Origin: a virus
DNA length: 33,953 nt
Virus record (IMG/VR): IMGVR_UViG_3300038701_001532
Location: 1-33,953 of that record
Strand: one strand, 5' to 3'
Part shown: in pieces, positions 2,619 through 33,953 of the stretch
Layout of the letters: every line of letters starts with the position of its first letter
Numbering within the stretch: the first letter of the stretch is position 1
Program-made: the position numbers and the translations under genes
The notes under the pieces: model-generated
The model's input: the letters and a program-made list of their open reading frames with translations, nothing else
Database searches by the model: none
What the model was told of the DNA's origin: nothing

Positions 2619-3497
2619 TTAAGCCTCAATCACATTTTGCTTTCTTAGTCTTTGCGCAACATCAAAATAACTTTTTTCGCCAACTTTGGCGTGTCGCTCA
2701 AGTGTGCGTTTTGAATAGCCAAACATCATATCATCGTTTGGCTTGGCTGGCGCTTGCGTTTTAGTTCGCTGCCTTTCATGCATTGGGGCGCTGATTAATC
2801 CTTTGAGCTGCTTATACTTGTTCACCATGAAGCCGCACAAGTTGCGCATACGTCGCCCTTTGCCCCTAAAGTGGTAAGCCTCTTCAACCAAGCGTATTTT
2901 ATCCATTTCTGAGCAATTGAGGCGCTTAAGCAGCTGTTCAACCTCTTGAGCTTGGCAATCGTTGAAAGACTTATCGACCTGTTGTTTGACTGACGGCTCA
3001 AGCTCAACGTCTTTGACTTCGTGCTCAGACTTCATGAGCTTTGTTTTTTCATCAGCTTGAAAAGCACCATTTCCCATTAATGGATCTTTTTTGTTTATAT
3101 AAATAGTGTGCTCGGTTTGTTCCTTGTTTGTTCCTTGATTTGTGGCGACTGACTTAAATAAGTCCATAAATTTGTTTATTATTTGAACAAATGAGGGGTT
3201 TCTACCGTTCTTTTTTACCTGAAATATGTTTGCTTGCTTACACTTTCTATAGGTCGCCTCTACAACAGAGCGTGAAACGCCGCACTCATCGGCAATGGTC
3301 TTTTGTGATTTCTCACACCGCCAACGATGCTTGGTCGCATAATAGAATATGTGCTTGAATACTTTGAACTCTAATTTAGTCAGCCACATGCCGAGCTTCA
3401 CAAGCGATTTGTGCAGTTTGTCGGTTAATGTGTAGATCGGTGAGTTGTTTTGCTTAAAATGATTGACATGCTGATCAGATGTTGTAAAATTGCTCAT
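2619..3497 (-). CDS. Winged-HTH DNA-binding protein, putative replication initiator or early regulator
   Basis: 292-aa ORF with an AAGGAAGG RBS. SQKTIADECGVSRSVVEATYRKCKQANIF is an HTH segment. It is the first gene of a leftward operon next to a repeat-bearing divergent region. No helicase or primase is present elsewhere in the genome. Confidence 0.45.
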   Translation of the reverse strand: MSNFTTSDQHVNHFKQNNSPIYTLTDKLHKSLVKLGMWLTKLEFKVFKHIFYYATKHRWRCEKSQKTIADECGVSRSVVEATYRKCKQANIFQVKKNGRNPSFVQIINKFMDLFKSVATNQGTNKEQTEHTIYINKKDPLMGNGAFQADEKTKLMKSEHEVKDVELEPSVKQQVDKSFNDCQAQEVEQLLKRLNCSEMDKIRLVEEAYHFRGKGRRMRNLCGFMVNKYKQLKGLISAPMHERQRTKTQAPAKPNDDMMFGYSKRTLERHAKVGEKSYFDVAQRLRKQNVIEA

Positions 3498-3798
3498 GAA
3501 TTACGCGCCTTCCTTGGTGTGTTTTTTAGCAACTTCATTGTTGTGTTTCCTTTTTTTCTTGGTTGGGAAAAAGTTAACGTTCGTTTTATGCGTTTGCCGC
3601 GACATAAAACAAAAGCTAGGATGCAAATTTCTATGGGGTTGTTTATTCAACCCCGCCAAAGGGACTAATATTTAAGTCCACTTTCCAAAGCTCAATAATT
3701 CTATGATCAAATCTCTCCTTTGTCATTAGCTACACCCAATTATTTTTATTTCGTTTAATTCTTTAGATCTATTTGTCATGTTTAAATGTTTGATTTAA

Positions 3799-3881
3799 TT
3801 CGACACGTTTAACGCATATGTCTACACGTTCGACATGTTTTTGCGGGTGTTCGCATTGGGGGCGTTTCAGGGTGTTGCATT
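3799..3881. promoter_or_regulatory. Two pairs of direct repeats in the divergent intergenic region (candidate operators or iterons)
   Basis: TTCGACACGTTT (3799..3810) and TTCGACATGTTT (3829..3840) start 30 bp apart. GGGTGTTCGCATT (3845..3857) and GGGTGTTGCATT (3870..3881) start 25 bp apart. Confidence 0.5.
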
Positions 3882-3935
3882 CAAGCAATTAAATAAGTCA
3901 TTCTGATTAAGTTAGATTTATATAGAGGTCACAAA

Positions 3936-4145
3936 ATGGATGTGAAACAAAACCGTGAAACACTACCAGAAAACCAACTTAATATGATTACACTCGAACC
4001 AGATCCCTACGAACCAGACAGCTGTTATATAAGATACATTGAAGTTCTAACCACGTCAGGCACTCGAATATGTTTGCCGTTAAACTGGTATAGGTCTATG
4101 GATGATTTGATTAAGCGCACTGAAAAGGTTTTGTATACCACCTAA
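3936..4145 (+). CDS. Hypothetical protein
   Basis: 69-aa ORF with an AGAGG RBS upstream, followed 5 nt later by a GC-rich hairpin. No motif recognised. Confidence 0.55.
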   Translation: MDVKQNRETLPENQLNMITLEPDPYEPDSCYIRYIEVLTTSGTRICLPLNWYRSMDDLIKRTEKVLYTT

Positions 4146-4149
4146 AACA

Positions 4150-4178
4150 AAAGGGGGCTAAGGAATAAACCCCCCTTT
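4150..4178. terminator. Rho-independent terminator hairpin between convergent units (best on the minus strand, possibly bidirectional)
   Basis: AAAGGGGG-(13 nt loop)-CCCCCTTT. On the minus strand the stem is followed by TTTTGTTTT. Confidence 0.55.
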
Positions 4179-4318
4179 GGCGCGTTCTAGGAGTGAAACG
4201 GACATTTCACGAAAAAAGCAATTTAACCATAGCAACAATTTGTTATGCTGTCTATGCTGGTTTAGATTAGCTCTTTCGCAGCCTCTCCAAAGTCATAAAG
4301 CACTAAGCCAGCCACCAA

Positions 4319-4792
4319 TCAAAAAGGTATATCGTTTAGATCATCATCTTCAAAGTCGCTTTCTGTTAGCGAGTCACTCGATTGCTTTTGTCTTCTATAG
4401 TCGTCGCTTGTTTGACGGGTGTTTGACTGTTGTTTGCTACCGCCCCCATGCCCGTTATTTGAGCCTTTAGAGTCAAGCATCTGTAATTCTTTCGCCACAA
4501 TATTAACGGCGTACTGCGTCTTACCGCTCTTATCTTCCCACTTGTTTGTTTTAAGCGAGCCTTCAATGTAAACCTTAGAACCTTTGCTTAAATATTTGTC
4601 TGCAACTTCAGCTAAGCGACCAAATATAGTTATGTTGTGCCACTCTGTAACCTCTTTTTGCTCACCCGTGTTTTTGTCTTTGTACCGTTGCGACGTTGCT
4701 ACAGACATCTTTACAAAAATACCGCTTCTTGATTCTATGGTTTCAATCTTGCCAATGTTGCCTAAGATGATTACCTTATTAATTCCCGCCAT
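4319..4792 (-). CDS. ssb: Single-stranded DNA-binding protein
   Basis: 157-aa ORF. It has the N-terminal OB-fold pattern (MAGINKVIILGNIG...TEWHNITIFGRLAE...GSKVYIEGSLKTNKWEDKSG), a Gly/Gln-rich linker and the acidic C-terminal tip DDDLNDIPF. Confidence 0.95.
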   Translation of the reverse strand: MAGINKVIILGNIGKIETIESRSGIFVKMSVATSQRYKDKNTGEQKEVTEWHNITIFGRLAEVADKYLSKGSKVYIEGSLKTNKWEDKSGKTQYAVNIVAKELQMLDSKGSNNGHGGGSKQQSNTRQTSDDYRRQKQSSDSLTESDFEDDDLNDIPF

Positions 4793-5102
4793 TATATAGA
4801 TCCTTTATTTCACCCATCGATTCTAAAACTTGCTCATCAAACAAAGCCGTGCCGGGTGGGTTTAAACGCCTTCTATACACACGGTTTTCGTTTAAAGTGC
4901 TTTCGAGCATCCCCTCAAATCTACCAATTAAGTTTTGAATATGCATGATTTGCGATCTAGCTTGGTTTGCCGTCGGGCTTGATTTTAAGCTAGCCATGGC
5001 AGACTCGAAATAACCCTCTAATTCTGTAACAAGCATGTTCCAATTTTCGGCGGTTTCTTCACCACGTGATTTGATTTCAATTTTGCTCATCATCGCCCCC
5101 AT
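4779..5102 (-). CDS. Hypothetical helical protein (start uncertain: 5102, 5093 or 5090)
   Basis: 107-aa ORF in operon with erf and ssb. It appears to share a helical module with the two upstream genes (see findings). Confidence 0.55.
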   Translation of the reverse strand: MGAMMSKIEIKSRGEETAENWNMLVTELEGYFESAMASLKSSPTANQARSQIMHIQNLIGRFEGMLESTLNENRVYRRRLNPPGTALFDEQVLESMGEIKDLYNGGN

Positions 5103-5604
5103 TTAAATATTTTTCATCAATGAACCTTGTACCTTTTATCTCTTTCATTGCGGTATCAAGCCTTGCAGACAAGCTTTGAATCAGGCCGATTTGTTCGGCA
5201 TGATACTTTTTGTTTTCTTCACCTATAGCGTGAAACAGTCCCATAACCACATGATGCAAGGTTTGTTGGTAATAGTTCCAATAATTTACTAGGTCGTCTG
5301 TTCCAAAATGGATAAGCTCAAATCCACACCGCTTTTTTTCTAAGGCTGGATCTCTGTTTGACGTAATCATGACACTAACCCACGCCCCACGCCTACGAGC
5401 ATCTAACAAGCTGACGTTTGGCCACACACCTAAAGAAATTCTTCTTTCTTGTTTTTTATAGGTATACTTTTTGCGCCATAGCTTAGAACCGTTGGGCATC
5501 ACCTCAAGATATACCCCCCCGCCATCAAACAAATATTTGCTTTTTTCACCTGGCGTTGCCTTGGCTATCATGTCGGTTGTTAGCATTTCTGAGTGTTTCA
5601 TCAT
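5077..5604 (-). CDS. Stand-alone P4-type integrase arm DNA-binding domain (DUF4102 / Arm-DNA-bind_3-like) fused to an unknown C-terminal domain
   Basis: 175-aa ORF. LTTDMIAKATPGEKSKYLFDGGGVYLEVMPNGSKLWRKKYTYKKQERRISLGVWPNVSLLDARRR closely follows the N-terminal arm-binding domain consensus of P4-family integrases. There is no core-binding or catalytic domain. Confidence 0.75.
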   Translation of the reverse strand: MMKHSEMLTTDMIAKATPGEKSKYLFDGGGVYLEVMPNGSKLWRKKYTYKKQERRISLGVWPNVSLLDARRRGAWVSVMITSNRDPALEKKRCGFELIHFGTDDLVNYWNYYQQTLHHVVMGLFHAIGEENKKYHAEQIGLIQSLSARLDTAMKEIKGTRFIDEKYLNGGDDEQN

Positions 5605-5903
5605 TCAGCGCCAAGAAAGAAACTAGCCTCTTTCAATTTTCTACGGCTTTGTTCTGCTAGTTTTTGGATTTGTTCTGATATTGTGTGAACTTGGCTTATT
5701 AAACCTGTTAAATCTCCTACGTGAGTCGTGCGGGTTTCTATATCCATAGATTGCATTAAGTGCTCAAGGTTAGCCACCATCCCCGTTATGTTTTCCCATA
5801 TTTCATTGATATGTACAGGCCGATCGATTCTCATTTCTAAATTATTCACGGGGTGATCTTGCGGGTCTAAGTCTGTTTCAAATGCTATCGTTTCATCTGT
5901 CAT
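5601..5903 (-). CDS. Hypothetical helical protein
   Basis: I chose the ATG at 5903, which forms an ATGA overlap with the erf stop at 5900..5902. The longer 141-aa track ORF would overlap erf by 127 nt. Confidence 0.55.
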   Translation of the reverse strand: MTDETIAFETDLDPQDHPVNNLEMRIDRPVHINEIWENITGMVANLEHLMQSMDIETRTTHVGDLTGLISQVHTISEQIQKLAEQSRRKLKEASFFLGAE

Positions 5904-6742
5904 TTTTTTGCCTCTTTCGCTTTCGCTTCGTCTATCCGTCTTAGTATATCTTTTAGCCACACTTGCACTTTGGGTTGCAGCATTGGCCACGTTGCTTTTT
6001 TGCCTTCGTCGCTTGCTCGCTTCCAAGATCTATAAGCTTTAATCTGGGCGTTTTTGTCATCGACTAAGCAGCATTCAATTATAACATTCATCAACTGTAA
6101 TGACTGTTTCGGTTTTTCTCTTGTGGTTTTTTCTGGCAGCTTGTCAAAATGGTTTGATGATGGGCGGTCGTCGATTTCTTCTTTGCCATCGTCGATTAAA
6201 AACATGGCTTGCATGGCATACTTGCGTGAGTAGCTTTGTGCGCTTCCAGTTATCTGGCTTTCATCCTTTCCTTTTTGAACTTCTTGCTCTCTCGCCCACC
6301 CGTTAGCCGTGACTACATCGCCCCCATACTTAAAGTGTACGGTCGACTTGATGTAATAACGCTCGCCTTTGTGCTCTAAGTCGTCAACTATCCAGCAAGC
6401 CGCGCCATCAGGTAAGTTGCGCTTAATCTCTTTATACATCGATTCGGCGTTTCTATAGCTATAGCCACCAAATGAGTTGGTCATGTCTTTGGGTACTCTT
6501 AGCCGTGACTGAACATAAGTTAAAGCGTCGTGTACATCATCGTACTTGTCTTTCTCTTTAACCTCATATAGATCGGGGTCTGGCTCTGGCTCAGATGGGG
6601 GCGGCTCAGGTCTGCTTATGCCCCTAGCGTTTGCCTGTGTTCCCCTTACAGTGTCTTGCATCCAATTATGGTAATGCTCTTCACTGTCCATTTGCTGCCT
6701 GTCGTCGTAATCATCATCCGTCGGTATGTCTTGCTCATTCAC
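5900..6742 (-). CDS. erf: Erf-family single-strand annealing recombinase
   Basis: 280-aa ORF. VPKDMTNSFGGYSYRNAESMYKEIK...HKGERYYIKSTVHF...GSAQSYSRKYAMQAMFLIDD matches ERF family blocks. It lies upstream of ssb. Confidence 0.85.
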   Translation of the reverse strand: MNEQDIPTDDDYDDRQQMDSEEHYHNWMQDTVRGTQANARGISRPEPPPSEPEPDPDLYEVKEKDKYDDVHDALTYVQSRLRVPKDMTNSFGGYSYRNAESMYKEIKRNLPDGAACWIVDDLEHKGERYYIKSTVHFKYGGDVVTANGWAREQEVQKGKDESQITGSAQSYSRKYAMQAMFLIDDGKEEIDDRPSSNHFDKLPEKTTREKPKQSLQLMNVIIECCLVDDKNAQIKAYRSWKRASDEGKKATWPMLQPKVQVWLKDILRRIDEAKAKEAKK

Positions 6743-6776
6743 GTTGAGATCCCCTTATTAACAAAGCGTTATTATA

Positions 6777-6797
6777 TGCTATACTAAGCTATACCGC
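6777..6797 (+). promoter_or_regulatory. Extended -10 promoter (TGCTATACT) with a GCTATA-N4-GCTATA motif upstream of the plus-strand block
   Basis: TGcTATACT at 6777..6785. GCTATActaaGCTATAccgc is at 6778..6797. An AAGGAA RBS lies 10 nt before the ATG at 6820. Confidence 0.5.
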
Positions 6798-6819
6798 AAA
6801 GATAAGGAACATTGAATTT

Positions 6820-7029
6820 ATGAGAATATTTAGGCGTGAACGTCATGAAGGCCGACGACCTGAACAGGTGAATATACGCTTGTCAAAAGAAGAAAAAGAG
6901 TTGCTCGAAACCGTGGCCGATTCTCTCGATATGGGGGCATCTACCTATGTCGCCATCGTCGCACTTGAAAAAGCTAGAAAGCAACTGAAAGCCAACAACA
7001 CCAAAAAAGATAAAAGGAAACCTAAGTAA
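6820..7029 (+). CDS. Ribbon-helix-helix (CopG/Arc/MobC-like) DNA-binding protein
   Basis: 69-aa ORF. RPEQVNIRLSKEEKELLETVADSLDMGASTYVAIVALEKARK follows the beta-strand, helix, helix pattern of RHH proteins. The C-terminal tail is basic. Confidence 0.65.
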   Translation: MRIFRRERHEGRRPEQVNIRLSKEEKELLETVADSLDMGASTYVAIVALEKARKQLKANNTKKDKRKPK

Positions 7030-7030
7030 G

Positions 7031-7270
7031 ATGCTGTTTACTTATAGACTGGTTAGGCTGTTGGGGGTGAGTGGTGACAATGTAAATGTATACTCACAGC
7101 TTGGCATCATCTGTAACAATGAATCAGATCTAAGGCTCTTAGCTGACAGGCTCAAGGATGGGCAGATTAATGATCTATATGTAACACATGGCGCTACCCC
7201 TGACGCAGCTTGTCCCCTATCTGCTTATATAACAGATACACCAACATCTATTGTATCCACACCTAAATAA
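7031..7270 (+). CDS. Hypothetical protein
   Basis: 79-aa ORF starting 1 nt after the RHH gene stop (translational coupling). No motif recognised. Confidence 0.55.
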   Translation: MLFTYRLVRLLGVSGDNVNVYSQLGIICNNESDLRLLADRLKDGQINDLYVTHGATPDAACPLSAYITDTPTSIVSTPK

Positions 7271-7335
7271 ATTTAGTTATTTACCCCACGTTCAGCTATA
7301 CCGTGCTATATTGTTAATATAGGCAAACGAAACGG
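7271..7335 (+). promoter_or_regulatory. Repeated promoter/operator cassette, copy A
   Basis: About 65 bp that align with 8092..8156. The two copies share the 18-mer GCTATACCGTGCTATATT (7295..7312), which contains the extended -10 TGcTATATT. This is followed by the palindrome TATATT-gtt-AATATA and then GGCAAACGAAA. Confidence 0.6.
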
Positions 7336-7346
7336 GCAGCAAAAAC

Positions 7347-7505
7347 ATGAAGCTAAAATCAGTATTTGAAGAATTACTCAGCGACTACTCAAATGGTGTA
7401 ATCACCCTAGATCGCTTGGTTAGCATTGCTTCAACTTTCGACCTTAATGATAAAGAGTTAATCAGACTATCTTTAACCATCACCCAAAAAGCGCAAGCCA
7501 AATAG
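7347..7505 (+). CDS. Small hypothetical protein (52 aa; not in the ORF track)
   Basis: Manual translation gives MKLKSVFEELLSDYSNGVITLDRLVSIASTFDLNDKELIRLSLTITQKAQAK*. It fills the gap between promoter cassette A and the next gene. The RBS is weak. Confidence 0.45.
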   Translation: MKLKSVFEELLSDYSNGVITLDRLVSIASTFDLNDKELIRLSLTITQKAQAK

Positions 7506-7753: not shown

Positions 7754-8077
7754 ATGAAACTTGATGAACCAGACTTAAGAATAGGCGATCTATTGTGTCG
7801 CAAAGGGGGCGAAACGGTCTATTGTTTAATAGCTCGTAGGGGCGACACACTCGACGTTTGCCGTCATGAAGATGCTAACGCCCTATTTCCGTTTTTGTTC
7901 AATGGCGACACGTTCAGCTTCCCCATGATTGACATGGTACATATAAACACCAAGCAGTTTGCTAAAATCTATAAAGCCGAGCATGGCAAGGATTTACCGC
8001 GTCAGTACGATATGCAAACCCATAAATGGGTGTTGGGTGTTGGGCGTGGTGAGCCTGACGAAAACGAAGAATTGTAA
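7754..8077 (+). CDS. Hypothetical protein
   Basis: 107-aa ORF with a GGGGGG RBS-like tract upstream. No motif recognised. Confidence 0.6.
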   Translation: MKLDEPDLRIGDLLCRKGGETVYCLIARRGDTLDVCRHEDANALFPFLFNGDTFSFPMIDMVHINTKQFAKIYKAEHGKDLPRQYDMQTHKWVLGVGRGEPDENEEL

Positions 8078-8091
8078 CTACACTTAAATAT

Positions 8092-8156
8092 ATTTAGTCG
8101 TTTACCACACATTGGGCTATACCGTGCTATATTTTAAATATAGGGCAAACGAAAGA
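8092..8156 (+). promoter_or_regulatory. Repeated promoter/operator cassette, copy B
   Basis: Aligns with 7271..7335. It has the identical 18-mer GCTATACCGTGCTATATT (8116..8133), then the perfect palindrome TATATTT-t-AAATATA and GGGCAAACGAAA. An AAGAGG RBS precedes the ATG at 8168. Confidence 0.6.
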
Positions 8157-8167
8157 GGTATTAAAAA

Positions 8168-8404
8168 ATGAATGAATATATAGCAATCGACGTAATCACA
8201 GCTAACTTAGTCCACCTTGGTTATAGAATGAACGATCCAGAATGGTTGGCTTTTAAACACTTATCGCTTGGCGCTGCCATGGTCTTTGATGCTAGGGAGT
8301 TGGGCGAGTTTATCGAGCAACTACACGAAAACCGGGTCGAAGTCGTTAGCAACTTTCAAAAGATGCATGACAATATCGTCAGCCATATGCAAAAAAGCGC
8401 ATAG
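8168..8404 (+). CDS. Hypothetical protein
   Basis: 78-aa ORF downstream of cassette B. No motif recognised. Confidence 0.6.
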   Translation: MNEYIAIDVITANLVHLGYRMNDPEWLAFKHLSLGAAMVFDARELGEFIEQLHENRVEVVSNFQKMHDNIVSHMQKSA

Positions 8405-13534: not shown

Positions 13535-14131
13535 TTATATTGCCCCTACCATTGCGCGTTGTGCCTCTGGGTTAATTTCGATGTATGCCTCAGTAGATCC
13601 AAGGCTGCTATGTCCAGCCATACGCTTAACGTCTTGTATAGATCCACCATGTAATGATGCAGTTCGAGCCATGTTTGTTATAAATGTACGCCTACCCGAA
13701 TGACTGGAATATCCAACAAGCTCAAGTTCTCTAAACCACGAGTAAAACAGCTTAACAATGCCGTTTGCTGATATCCTTTGACCGCGATAATTCAGCATTA
13801 TTGAATTTGTTAGGCGTGGCTTTATCCTATGTGTTTCGTATAGTTCTTGAAGTGCTCGCCTTAACTCTTTGTTCATGTAGATTATACGCCCCCCTGATTT
13901 ACCTTTCGATTGGTTGTCGTATATATCTATTTTCTCGCCTACCCTCAATTGATCGTCATCCATAACGTTTTGCCATTCAAGGCGTGAGATCTCCTTTGCT
14001 CTCAATCCAGCTTTGCAGCTTAATAAAAAGATACATTTGTTGCGCTTGTCATATTTGAGCGTTTCTAAATATCTTAATACCAAGTTTATGCGCCTATCGC
14101 TTAGATAGTTCGCTTTCTTTTTGTTTGCCAT
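13535..14131 (-). CDS. int: Tyrosine recombinase/integrase, catalytic-domain-only size (198 aa)
   Basis: Catalytic residues are recognisable: AGLRAKEISRL (Arg I), HSGRRTF (His-x-x-Arg) and GHSSLGSTEAYI (His/Tyr nucleophile). There is no arm-binding N-terminal domain, and only about 40 aa precede Arg I. The size matches FimB/FimE-type small recombinases. Confidence 0.85.
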   Translation of the reverse strand: MANKKKANYLSDRRINLVLRYLETLKYDKRNKCIFLLSCKAGLRAKEISRLEWQNVMDDDQLRVGEKIDIYDNQSKGKSGGRIIYMNKELRRALQELYETHRIKPRLTNSIMLNYRGQRISANGIVKLFYSWFRELELVGYSSHSGRRTFITNMARTASLHGGSIQDVKRMAGHSSLGSTEAYIEINPEAQRAMVGAI

Positions 14132-14489: not shown

Positions 14490-14513
14490 AATGTTTCACG
14501 GAATGTTTCACGG
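14490..14513. repeat. Perfect tandem duplication of the 12-mer AATGTTTCACGG
   Basis: 14490..14501 and 14502..14513 are identical. Confidence 0.85.
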
Positions 14514-14545
14514 TTGGGCGGAAAGTTTTCGCCCAAATCGCACAG

Positions 14546-14562
14546 GTGACAAATTTGGTCAC
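14546..14562. repeat. Core-type near-palindrome GTGAC-AAATTTG-GTCAC (candidate recombinase crossover site); includes the right copy of the 11-bp inverted repeat
   Basis: Two 5-bp inverted arms flank a 7-bp AT-rich spacer. This is the geometry of tyrosine-recombinase core sites. Confidence 0.45.
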
Positions 14563-14573
14563 ATTGAAACCTT

Positions 14574-14673
14574 GCTACATTCGCTACATTGCTACATAGG
14601 GTTTACATTGCGTTGCATTAAAACCCCATATCACGGGCTTTAAGCTACATGGGGTTTACATAGGGGTTTACAT
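14574..14673 (+). repeat. Cluster of 7 same-orientation YTACAT repeats (4 x GCTACAT, 3 x GGGTTTACAT); iterons or arm-type sites
   Basis: GCTACAT is at 14574, 14583, 14591 and 14644. GGGTTTACAT is at 14599, 14652 and 14664. Spacings between successive units are 8-12 bp, with one 42-bp gap. Confidence 0.75.
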
Positions 14674-14739
14674 TGCAGCGCGGCGAACTGGTAAGGATTA
14701 CTTGATAGTTGAGCTATTAGAGAATTCCTAATAACTCAT

Positions 14740-14838: not shown

Positions 14839-14868
14839 TTATCATTTGTTATCATTTGTTATCATTTG
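14839..14868. repeat. Three perfect tandem copies of TTATCATTTG
   Basis: 14839..14848, 14849..14858 and 14859..14868 are identical. The last unit covers the stop codon of the 14862..15128 ORF. Confidence 0.85.
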
Positions 14869-33826: not shown

Positions 33827-33953
33827 CCATAACGCAATAGGGGTTTATATGTCTGATAACAAAAACAACGAAAAGGCCAAGATAGCCGAGCAAGTTTTTA
33901 ATGAGCATGTTCTCGCCATTCCTGAGCAACTTTTGCACGCTAAATTTGCCGAA
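33827..33953. repeat. Terminal direct repeat, copy 2 (identical to 1..127)
   Basis: See copy 1. It includes the dam RBS and the first 35 codons. Confidence 0.9.

Follow-up and report, generated by a model that had tools for sequence, protein, structure and literature searches.

The stretch of DNA analysed here, hereafter the window, comprises the 33,953 nucleotides (nt) of IMG/VR virus record IMGVR_UViG_3300038701_001532. The gene under study lies on its minus strand at 5077..5604 (stop codon at 5077-5079) and encodes a protein of 175 amino acids (aa), termed here the arm protein, in which the arm-type DNA-binding domain of an integrase is present without the remainder of the enzyme. The translation is identical to that quoted in an earlier note on this DNA, which had been made from the letters alone. 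We found that the two ends of the window share a direct overlap of 127 bp (positions 1-127 and 33827-33953) and that the window matches a 33,856-bp Logan contig in circularly permuted order, indicating that it represents a complete phage genome of about 33.8 kb; P0001, the protein called on the Logan contig, is identical to the arm protein. As it stands, the gene is a well-documented oddity, with a conserved, unusual architecture in an unusual location.

The arm protein and its operon

A Pfam search assigned residues 8-92 of the arm protein (5329..5583, minus strand) to PF13356 (Arm-DNA-bind_3, formerly DUF4102), with an E value of 2.4e-17 and a score of 63.3 bits (gathering cut-off 27), the match spanning positions 1-82 of the 83 positions in the profile. 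The protein also matched the P4-like model NF007246 and, in phmmer searches of the PDB, the entries 3ju0_A (E 4e-15) and 3jtz_A (E 5e-10). All of the invariant or nearly invariant positions in 72 aligned arm domains are retained, including W43, R44, K46, Y47, G59, P62, A69, R70, D85 and P86, and the arm part (residues 1-95) is basic, with an isoelectric point of 10.06. AlphaFold2 (AF2) was uninformative when run from the single sequence (predicted local distance difference test score, pLDDT, of 37), whereas a 72-sequence alignment gave a model with a mean pLDDT of 82.6 and block means of 95-98 over residues 11-90. Foldseek matched this model to 3JU0 (root-mean-square deviation 0.6 Å, template modelling (TM) score 0.84) and to 3JTZ and 3RMP (TM score 0.93), and to no further PDB entry with significance. 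By sequence and predicted fold, residues 8-92 are a bona fide member of PF13356, resembling the arms of the IntSXT subgroup as represented by the HAI7 integrase (3JU0), the HPI integrase (3JTZ) and 3RMP; profile, structure-database and fold comparisons thus confirmed the arm-domain assignment of the earlier note. In known PF13356 proteins, however, the arm forms the N-terminus of an integrase of about 400 aa, whereas here it is attached to a 62-aa orphan helical region.

The integrase-like part proved to be longer than the residues 8-80 originally proposed. A profile built from the arm protein and its one relative (profile A2, see below) was aligned by hhalign with a profile of 20 full-length P4/SXT-type integrases at a probability of 99.9 and an E value of 4e-32, the alignment reaching residue 113 of the query and covering columns 4-114 of the integrase profile. 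Residues 93-113 (5266..5328, minus strand) correspond to the integrase linker and to the start of the first core-binding helix, whose F..va.eW motif reads DLVNYWNYYQ in the arm protein. Residues 1-113 therefore read as the N-terminal 114 or so residues of a P4/SXT-type tyrosine integrase, comprising the arm, the linker and the beginning of a helix. Since the homology breaks off inside a structural element, the protein looks like the product of an integrase-gene truncation and not of tidy domain shuffling. In a six-frame search of the genome with the P4/SXT profile, the arm ORF (open reading frame) was the sole significant match, and no other fragment of a P4-type integrase, catalytic parts included, was found in any frame, which also points to an origin by truncation.

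No core-binding domain was detected in the arm protein, there being no Pfam match to one and the profile-profile alignment ending at residue 113, and no catalytic domain, with its R-K-H-R-H/W pentad and tyrosine nucleophile, was detected either (no PF00589 match; the protein ends at residue 175). Because both domains were looked for and are absent, as the earlier note had stated, the arm protein is not an integrase. Nor does it qualify as an excisionase, either by fold, the domain having an integrase arm fold in place of a small winged-helix or helix-turn-helix one (Xis, AlpA, TorI, HTH_17) and matching no helix-turn-helix family, or by position, about 8 kb from the recombinase of this genome.

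The remaining residues, 114-175 (5080..5265, minus strand), had been described in the earlier note as an unrelated helical C-terminus, a description that holds. AF2 predicted helices at residues 102-126 and 129-158, forming a hairpin (block-mean pLDDT 62-82), followed by a putatively disordered acidic end (pLDDT below 50 for residues 160-167 and 169-175). Residues 114-175 have no counterpart in Pfam, the PDB or BFVD, and a profile search with the tail found a single homolog, the 83-aa ORF P0271 that accompanies the arm gene of the relative, so that the tail can be called an orphan. The possibility that it is a degenerate core-binding domain was rejected, since the hhalign alignment stops at residue 113.

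The arm gene lies in a minus-strand transcription unit (4319..6742) of overlapping or abutting ORFs. This unit begins with erf (5900-6742; Pfam ERF, E 4e-21) and continues with a 141-aa ORF (5601-6026), the arm gene, a 107-aa ORF (4779-5102) and ssb (4319-4792; Pfam SSB, E 1e-29), all on the minus strand. The start codon of the arm gene overlaps the stop codon of the ORF upstream (ATGA). Just past ssb is a hairpin resembling an intrinsic terminator (4148-4179, minus strand; 12-pair stem with 6 G-C pairs, followed by a T-run), the sole minus-strand terminator-like site in 3400-7200; none was found on this strand between erf and ssb. The arm gene appears to be co-transcribed with erf and ssb, in agreement with its earlier placement inside an erf-ssb operon, and its GC content (0.411) differs little from the genome-wide value (0.439). 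The upstream 141-aa ORF was also considered as integrase-like and rejected, the comparison giving an E value of 0.96 on low-complexity basic sequence only.

Relatives of the arm protein and maintenance of the gene

A word-indexed protein search with the whole arm protein returned only the protein itself. When 1.84 billion representatives were searched exhaustively with HMMER, there were 8,969 matches, nearly all of them to the arm domain alone, and among these we found one true relative, P0003. It is carried on three short contigs (L002-L004), which are possibly not independent samples, and its slot is the same as that in the window, ERF being followed by a homolog of the 141-aa ORF, then by the arm gene and lastly by a 157-aa SSB (the order can also be read in L003). 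In the relative, the arm ORF runs for 109 codons to an in-frame TAA and is followed by the 83-codon ORF P0271. The TAA (L002 517-519; also present in L003 and L004) aligns with the CAA codon of Gln114 in the window (5263-5265), and a GTG lies four codons past it, with the 83-codon ORF being conserved and staying open. P0271 aligns with the C-terminal region of the window's protein, indicating that the combination of arm and helical tail is common to both lineages, and a tblastn alignment reading through the TAA showed 45% identity over 157 residues. The TAA could reflect gene fission, gene fusion, read-through or early decay; on the aligned sequences, either the relative has a split form of the architecture or the window a fused one, the change falling precisely where the integrase homology ends.

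Comparison of the two lineages by the Nei-Gojobori method gave proportions of nonsynonymous and synonymous differences (pN and pS) of 0.33 and 0.77 for the arm part and of 0.46 and 0.74 for the C-terminal part, pS being saturated in both. Since the synonymous sites are saturated and yet both frames and the arm consensus have been kept, the gene is likely to have been maintained for a long time under selection and is not debris. Purifying selection appears to have kept it at an identical genomic position in no fewer than two diverged lineages of phages.

An explanation at odds with this is that the gene is a non-functional remnant, left over from a deleted P4-type integrase and persisting by chance or by hitch-hiking in a variable slot of the operon. 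The homology stops within a helix of the core-binding domain, and the relative has its in-frame stop at that same point; the gene is rare and is absent from two related loci, L009 and L177, in which the slot holds other small ORFs; and truncated ORFs encoding only the arm of an integrase are common in metagenomes. However, a remnant would not be expected to keep its frame, its length and its conserved arm residues while synonymous sites became saturated, nor to score over twice the Pfam gathering cut-off. In addition, the gene is translationally coupled in an operon of essential early genes, other integrase debris is missing from the genome, and the 83 codons past the stop of the relative are also open and conserved. 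We therefore regard decay as unlikely.

Further relatives were sought in other ways. Viral, metagenome and genome collections were scanned with patterns for relatives of the arm protein, and viral contigs for the ERF, in both cases with no match; SSB scans returned 160 loci, all with distant SSBs (at most 59% identity) and none a close phage relative, and megablast of the region against phage genomes gave no match. The proteins gp28 of Stenotrophomonas phage S1, gp03 of Sinorhizobium phage PBC5 and gp27 of Klebsiella phage Chronis, and that of Acinetobacter phage qsb1, were examined as candidates and are full-length integrases, not stand-alone arm proteins. Among PHROGs, the best match was phrog_3423 (a 157-position profile with no function assigned; E 8.6e-22), which aligns at positions 1-91 with residues 1-91, suggesting that short phage proteins with this N-terminus have already been clustered; the match is limited to the arm part.

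Other arrangements of the domain were encountered in the course of these searches. The second-best match of the exhaustive search, the 839-aa metagenomic protein P0002, carries five Arm-DNA-bind_3 domains in tandem and, after them, about 400 residues unlike the query, and the 191-aa protein P0021 has two such domains, suggesting that multi-arm proteins without a recombinase domain exist. Two entries in BFVD, A0A6H0X3H1 (90 aa, Klebsiella phage LASTA) and A0A6M3YP48 (201 aa, Alteromonas phage vB_AcoS-R7M), matched the arm fold weakly (probability 0.99, E 0.04-0.11) and may be further free-standing arm-fold proteins of phages.

Possible roles of a free-standing arm domain

The interpretation we favour, with middling confidence, is that the arm protein is an exapted, non-catalytic and probably site-specific protein of integrase origin, presumably binding DNA, which functions independently of the 198-aa tyrosine recombinase encoded elsewhere in the genome. 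The basic arm fold would bind short and probably repeated DNA sites, as the arm domains of integrases do; the C-terminal helical hairpin would provide self-association or contact with a partner; and the protein, expressed together with the early recombination genes, would act alone as a regulator, an architectural protein or a competitor at arm-type sites. A directionality or transcription factor derived from the N-terminus of an integrase, which the earlier note had raised, is possible.

Arm-binding domains are thought to have been the step by which simple tyrosine recombinases became mobile-element integrases subject to regulation (Smyshlyaev et al. 2021, PMC8138268). Here the path may have been the reverse, the arm domain having been freed from an integrase and selected as a free-standing protein in an early recombination operon, in a phage lacking any integrase of this kind. 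If the arm protein is indeed a regulator or a decoy for arm sites, it would represent a new class of small phage DNA-binding proteins and, on the bacterial side, a parallel to AP2-type exaptation, in which DNA-binding folds of integrases were put to new use. No characterised protein consisting of a free-standing arm domain came to light when the full text of the literature was searched for DUF4102 and for arm domains that stand alone or act in trans. A precedent for a regulatory role of arm-site binding is provided by IntS of prophage KplE1 (CPS-53), in which the arm-type sites overlap the intS promoter and the regulation of intS has been studied (Panis et al. 2010, PMC2951348). IntS belongs to the integrase family named in a tblastn match to the arm domain described here ('putative prophage CPS-53 integrase'); it is, however, an entire integrase whose site of action is its own attL, unlike the arm-only protein of the phage.

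Several observations weigh against the favoured interpretation. The model of the C-terminal region of the arm protein is built on two sequences. The break in homology in mid-helix looks like an accidental truncation rather than designed domain shuffling, and the TAA of the relative falls at the junction of arm and tail, so that decay or a dispensable tail is possible. Among the short metagenomic ORFs that encode an arm and nothing else, many are plainly integrases with a frameshift or a truncation. Finally, only two lineages among about 15 billion predicted proteins were found to carry the gene, indicating that it is dispensable for this phage group.

A more specialised role would be that of a weapon, the arm protein occupying the arm-type sites of a co-resident P4/SXT-type element, such as a satellite, an island or a prophage, and thereby inhibiting the integrase of that element in a dominant-negative manner or hijacking it. 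Truncated transposases that have kept only DNA binding, Tn5 Inh and IS1 InsA among them, regulate or inhibit their parent enzymes. The arm protein may be analogous to these in having kept the DNA-binding part of a recombinase and lost the catalytic part; their parent enzyme, however, is encoded on the same element, whereas no parent P4-type integrase, or other fragment of one, is present in this genome. That absence is itself a point in favour of a weapon directed at other elements. Bona fide cellular or island integrases are about as similar to this domain, with arm identities of up to about 50%, as its phage homolog is, and the gene occupies a variable accessory slot of the early operon, both being consistent with such a role. 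However, the specificity of an arm domain is not predictable from sequence, and the searches did not point to a host: the collections covered contained a single relative of this phage, on short contigs, no match came with a host name, and a cluster look-up of the nearest integrases yielded no host taxon. We consider this role decidedly unlikely and retain the more general one of an exapted DNA-binding protein.

The 198-aa recombinase and the adjacent repeats

The recombinase of the genome, about 8 kb from the arm gene, as originally described, and in a different operon, is a protein of 198 aa (13535..14131, minus strand) consisting of a catalytic domain only (PF00589, E 1e-20, residues 14-188), in which the R, HxxR, H and Y motifs are readable. 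The NCBIfam models that it matched best were XerA, XerC and XerD, each with a score well short of the cut-off, and against the P4/SXT integrase profile it gave an E value of 1.3. The family appears to be Xer-like and not P4/SXT-like, and a catalytic domain of Xer-like type and an arm of P4/SXT type are not the halves of one ancestral integrase. The recombinase has more than 1,700 homologs at an E value of 1e-10 or better, in the size class of 190-205 aa, and the best 120 of these are almost all 187-233 aa in length. Members of the family are also found in phiCbK-like Caulobacter phages, in Sphingobium phage Lacusarx, in Ruegeria phages and in phage-sized contigs of about 22-38 kb; they lie beside ParA genes in two contigs (L008 and L010) and, in L178, a few kb from bacterial-type genes with GATase/SIS, AsnC and NTP-transferase domains. 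The earlier note had remarked that the recombinase lacks exactly the domain found in the arm protein. The arm is indeed absent, but so is the core-binding domain, and the lack of both is a trait of the whole family of recombinases of about 200 aa, which appears to be widespread without any arm gene.

We compared seven loci (L005, L008, L009, L010, L177, L178 and L179) whose recombinases are 40-50% identical to that of the window; for its three closest homologs, the contigs were too short for the presence of an arm gene to be judged. Within the contig DNA of each locus, tblastn with the arm protein found no match at any of the seven, and none of the six loci with listed genes had a PF13356 match among its called genes (precomputed matches). 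The gene order of L177 resembles that of the window, with tail genes, the recombinase, ERF, SSB, VRR_NUC and ParB_N-methylase, and L009 also has an ERF-SSB module; in both, the ERF-to-SSB slot holds ORFs other than the arm gene. These results suggest that the arm gene was inserted as an accessory in a slot of variable content and is not a regular companion of the recombinase. Lack of correlation between the two genes had been named beforehand as a finding that would count against the earlier proposal, and in this respect the comparison was negative. L177 also carries HTH_3 genes, and no CI-type repressor was recognised in the window.

Upstream of the recombinase gene is a 109-nt array (14561..14669) of units that read ATGTA(G/A)(C/A) in the sense of this gene (TACAT on the plus strand). 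It belongs to the direct repeats at 14.5-14.7 kb that the earlier note had named as a possible target of the arm protein. Four of the seven exact copies of GCTACAT in the window, and three of the four exact copies of GGTTTACAT, lie in the array. It is flanked by blocks of 42 nt and 39 nt that are 100% identical, and contiguous, in a relative (L172) whose recombinase is 68-69% identical to that of the window, indicating that the array is a lineage-specific insertion into an ultraconserved block of 81 nt. This block is non-coding (14522-14711 in the window, where the array splits it, and 1497-1577 in L172). At the insertion junction, some 400-500 bp upstream of the recombinase gene, lies the palindrome ATGTGAC-CAAATTT-GTCACCT. 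It has the appearance of a recombinase core site, and the units of the array resemble its left half-site. The block also holds a hairpin, GGGCGAAAACTTTCCGCCC. Candidate roles for the block are the site at which the small recombinase acts, an origin and a partition element. It matched no Rfam family or tRNA, and genome and viral collections contained no exact copy of it; there was no support for its being a known RNA or an attP core of host origin.

Repeats of other kinds were also seen in this region. The window contains AATGTTTCACGG twice and TTATCATTTG three times (14490-14513 and 14839-14868). In L174, a 21-bp unit, CCGCAAATAAAACCCAATTCA, occurs four times in positions 1-100, and in L009, a locus without an arm gene, positions 2695-2754 contain 15-bp repeats, some of which include ATGTAG. 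The recombinase-proximal repeats of the relatives sampled are thus apparently iteron-like and fast-evolving. Since the arrays vary among relatives, they give no reason to see the arm protein in particular as the ligand, though it may be one, and the repeat evidence points to the recombinase or replication module at least as much as to the arm protein.

These findings bear on the proposal, made in the earlier note, of a split integrase with arm binding supplied in trans; in the form considered here, the arm protein would bind the array at 14561-14669 and recruit or activate the 198-aa recombinase at the adjacent palindrome. The recombinase is without arm and core-binding domains, the array lies immediately beside the ultraconserved block with its palindrome, and the insertion of the array was seen in this genome alone, no other complete genome with the arm gene being known. 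However, the recombinase family is uniformly about 200 aa long across its more than 1,700 members, no arm gene was found in the contig DNA of the seven relatives, including L009 and L177 with their ERF and SSB genes, and the two proteins differ in ancestry and are encoded about 8 kb apart in separate operons. The likeness of the array units to a half-site of the palindrome means that the recombinase itself could bind them, and the corresponding region of relatives contains different tandem arrays. That the principle is workable was shown with an engineered binary lambda Int, in which, as in the proposed arrangement, arm binding and catalysis reside on two polypeptides; lambda Int's N-terminal and C-terminal domains fail to cooperate as separate polypeptides when unmodified and recombine only if engineered, by an activating mutation and a transferred peptide (Williams, Voziyanova and Voziyanov 2022, PMC9791396). 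The binary lambda Int is artificial, whereas the present case would join two subgroups of recombinases that do not co-occur in relatives. It was among the closest known items that we found, and the statement in the earlier note that its author was aware of no characterised example was supported as regards natural systems.

Without co-occurrence and with Xer-like and P4/SXT ancestries on the two sides, the split integrase was not supported, and we judge it highly improbable, the location of the lineage-specific array beside a core-like palindrome being all that keeps it in consideration. If true, with the arm protein as partner of the recombinase, it would be the first natural binary integrase with arm binding in trans and a template for engineering. 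The stronger version, in which a captured foreign arm licenses an Xer-like recombinase to form a natural two-polypeptide integrase, heterobivalent and directionally controlled, is more doubtful still. The exapted arm protein is better viewed as acting apart from the recombinase.

In addition to the repeats beside the recombinase gene, the window contains a 102-nt direct repeat with 75% identity between its copies (7250-7351 and 8071-8172), located in a block of plus-strand genes, which may correspond to what the earlier note had called promoter cassettes.

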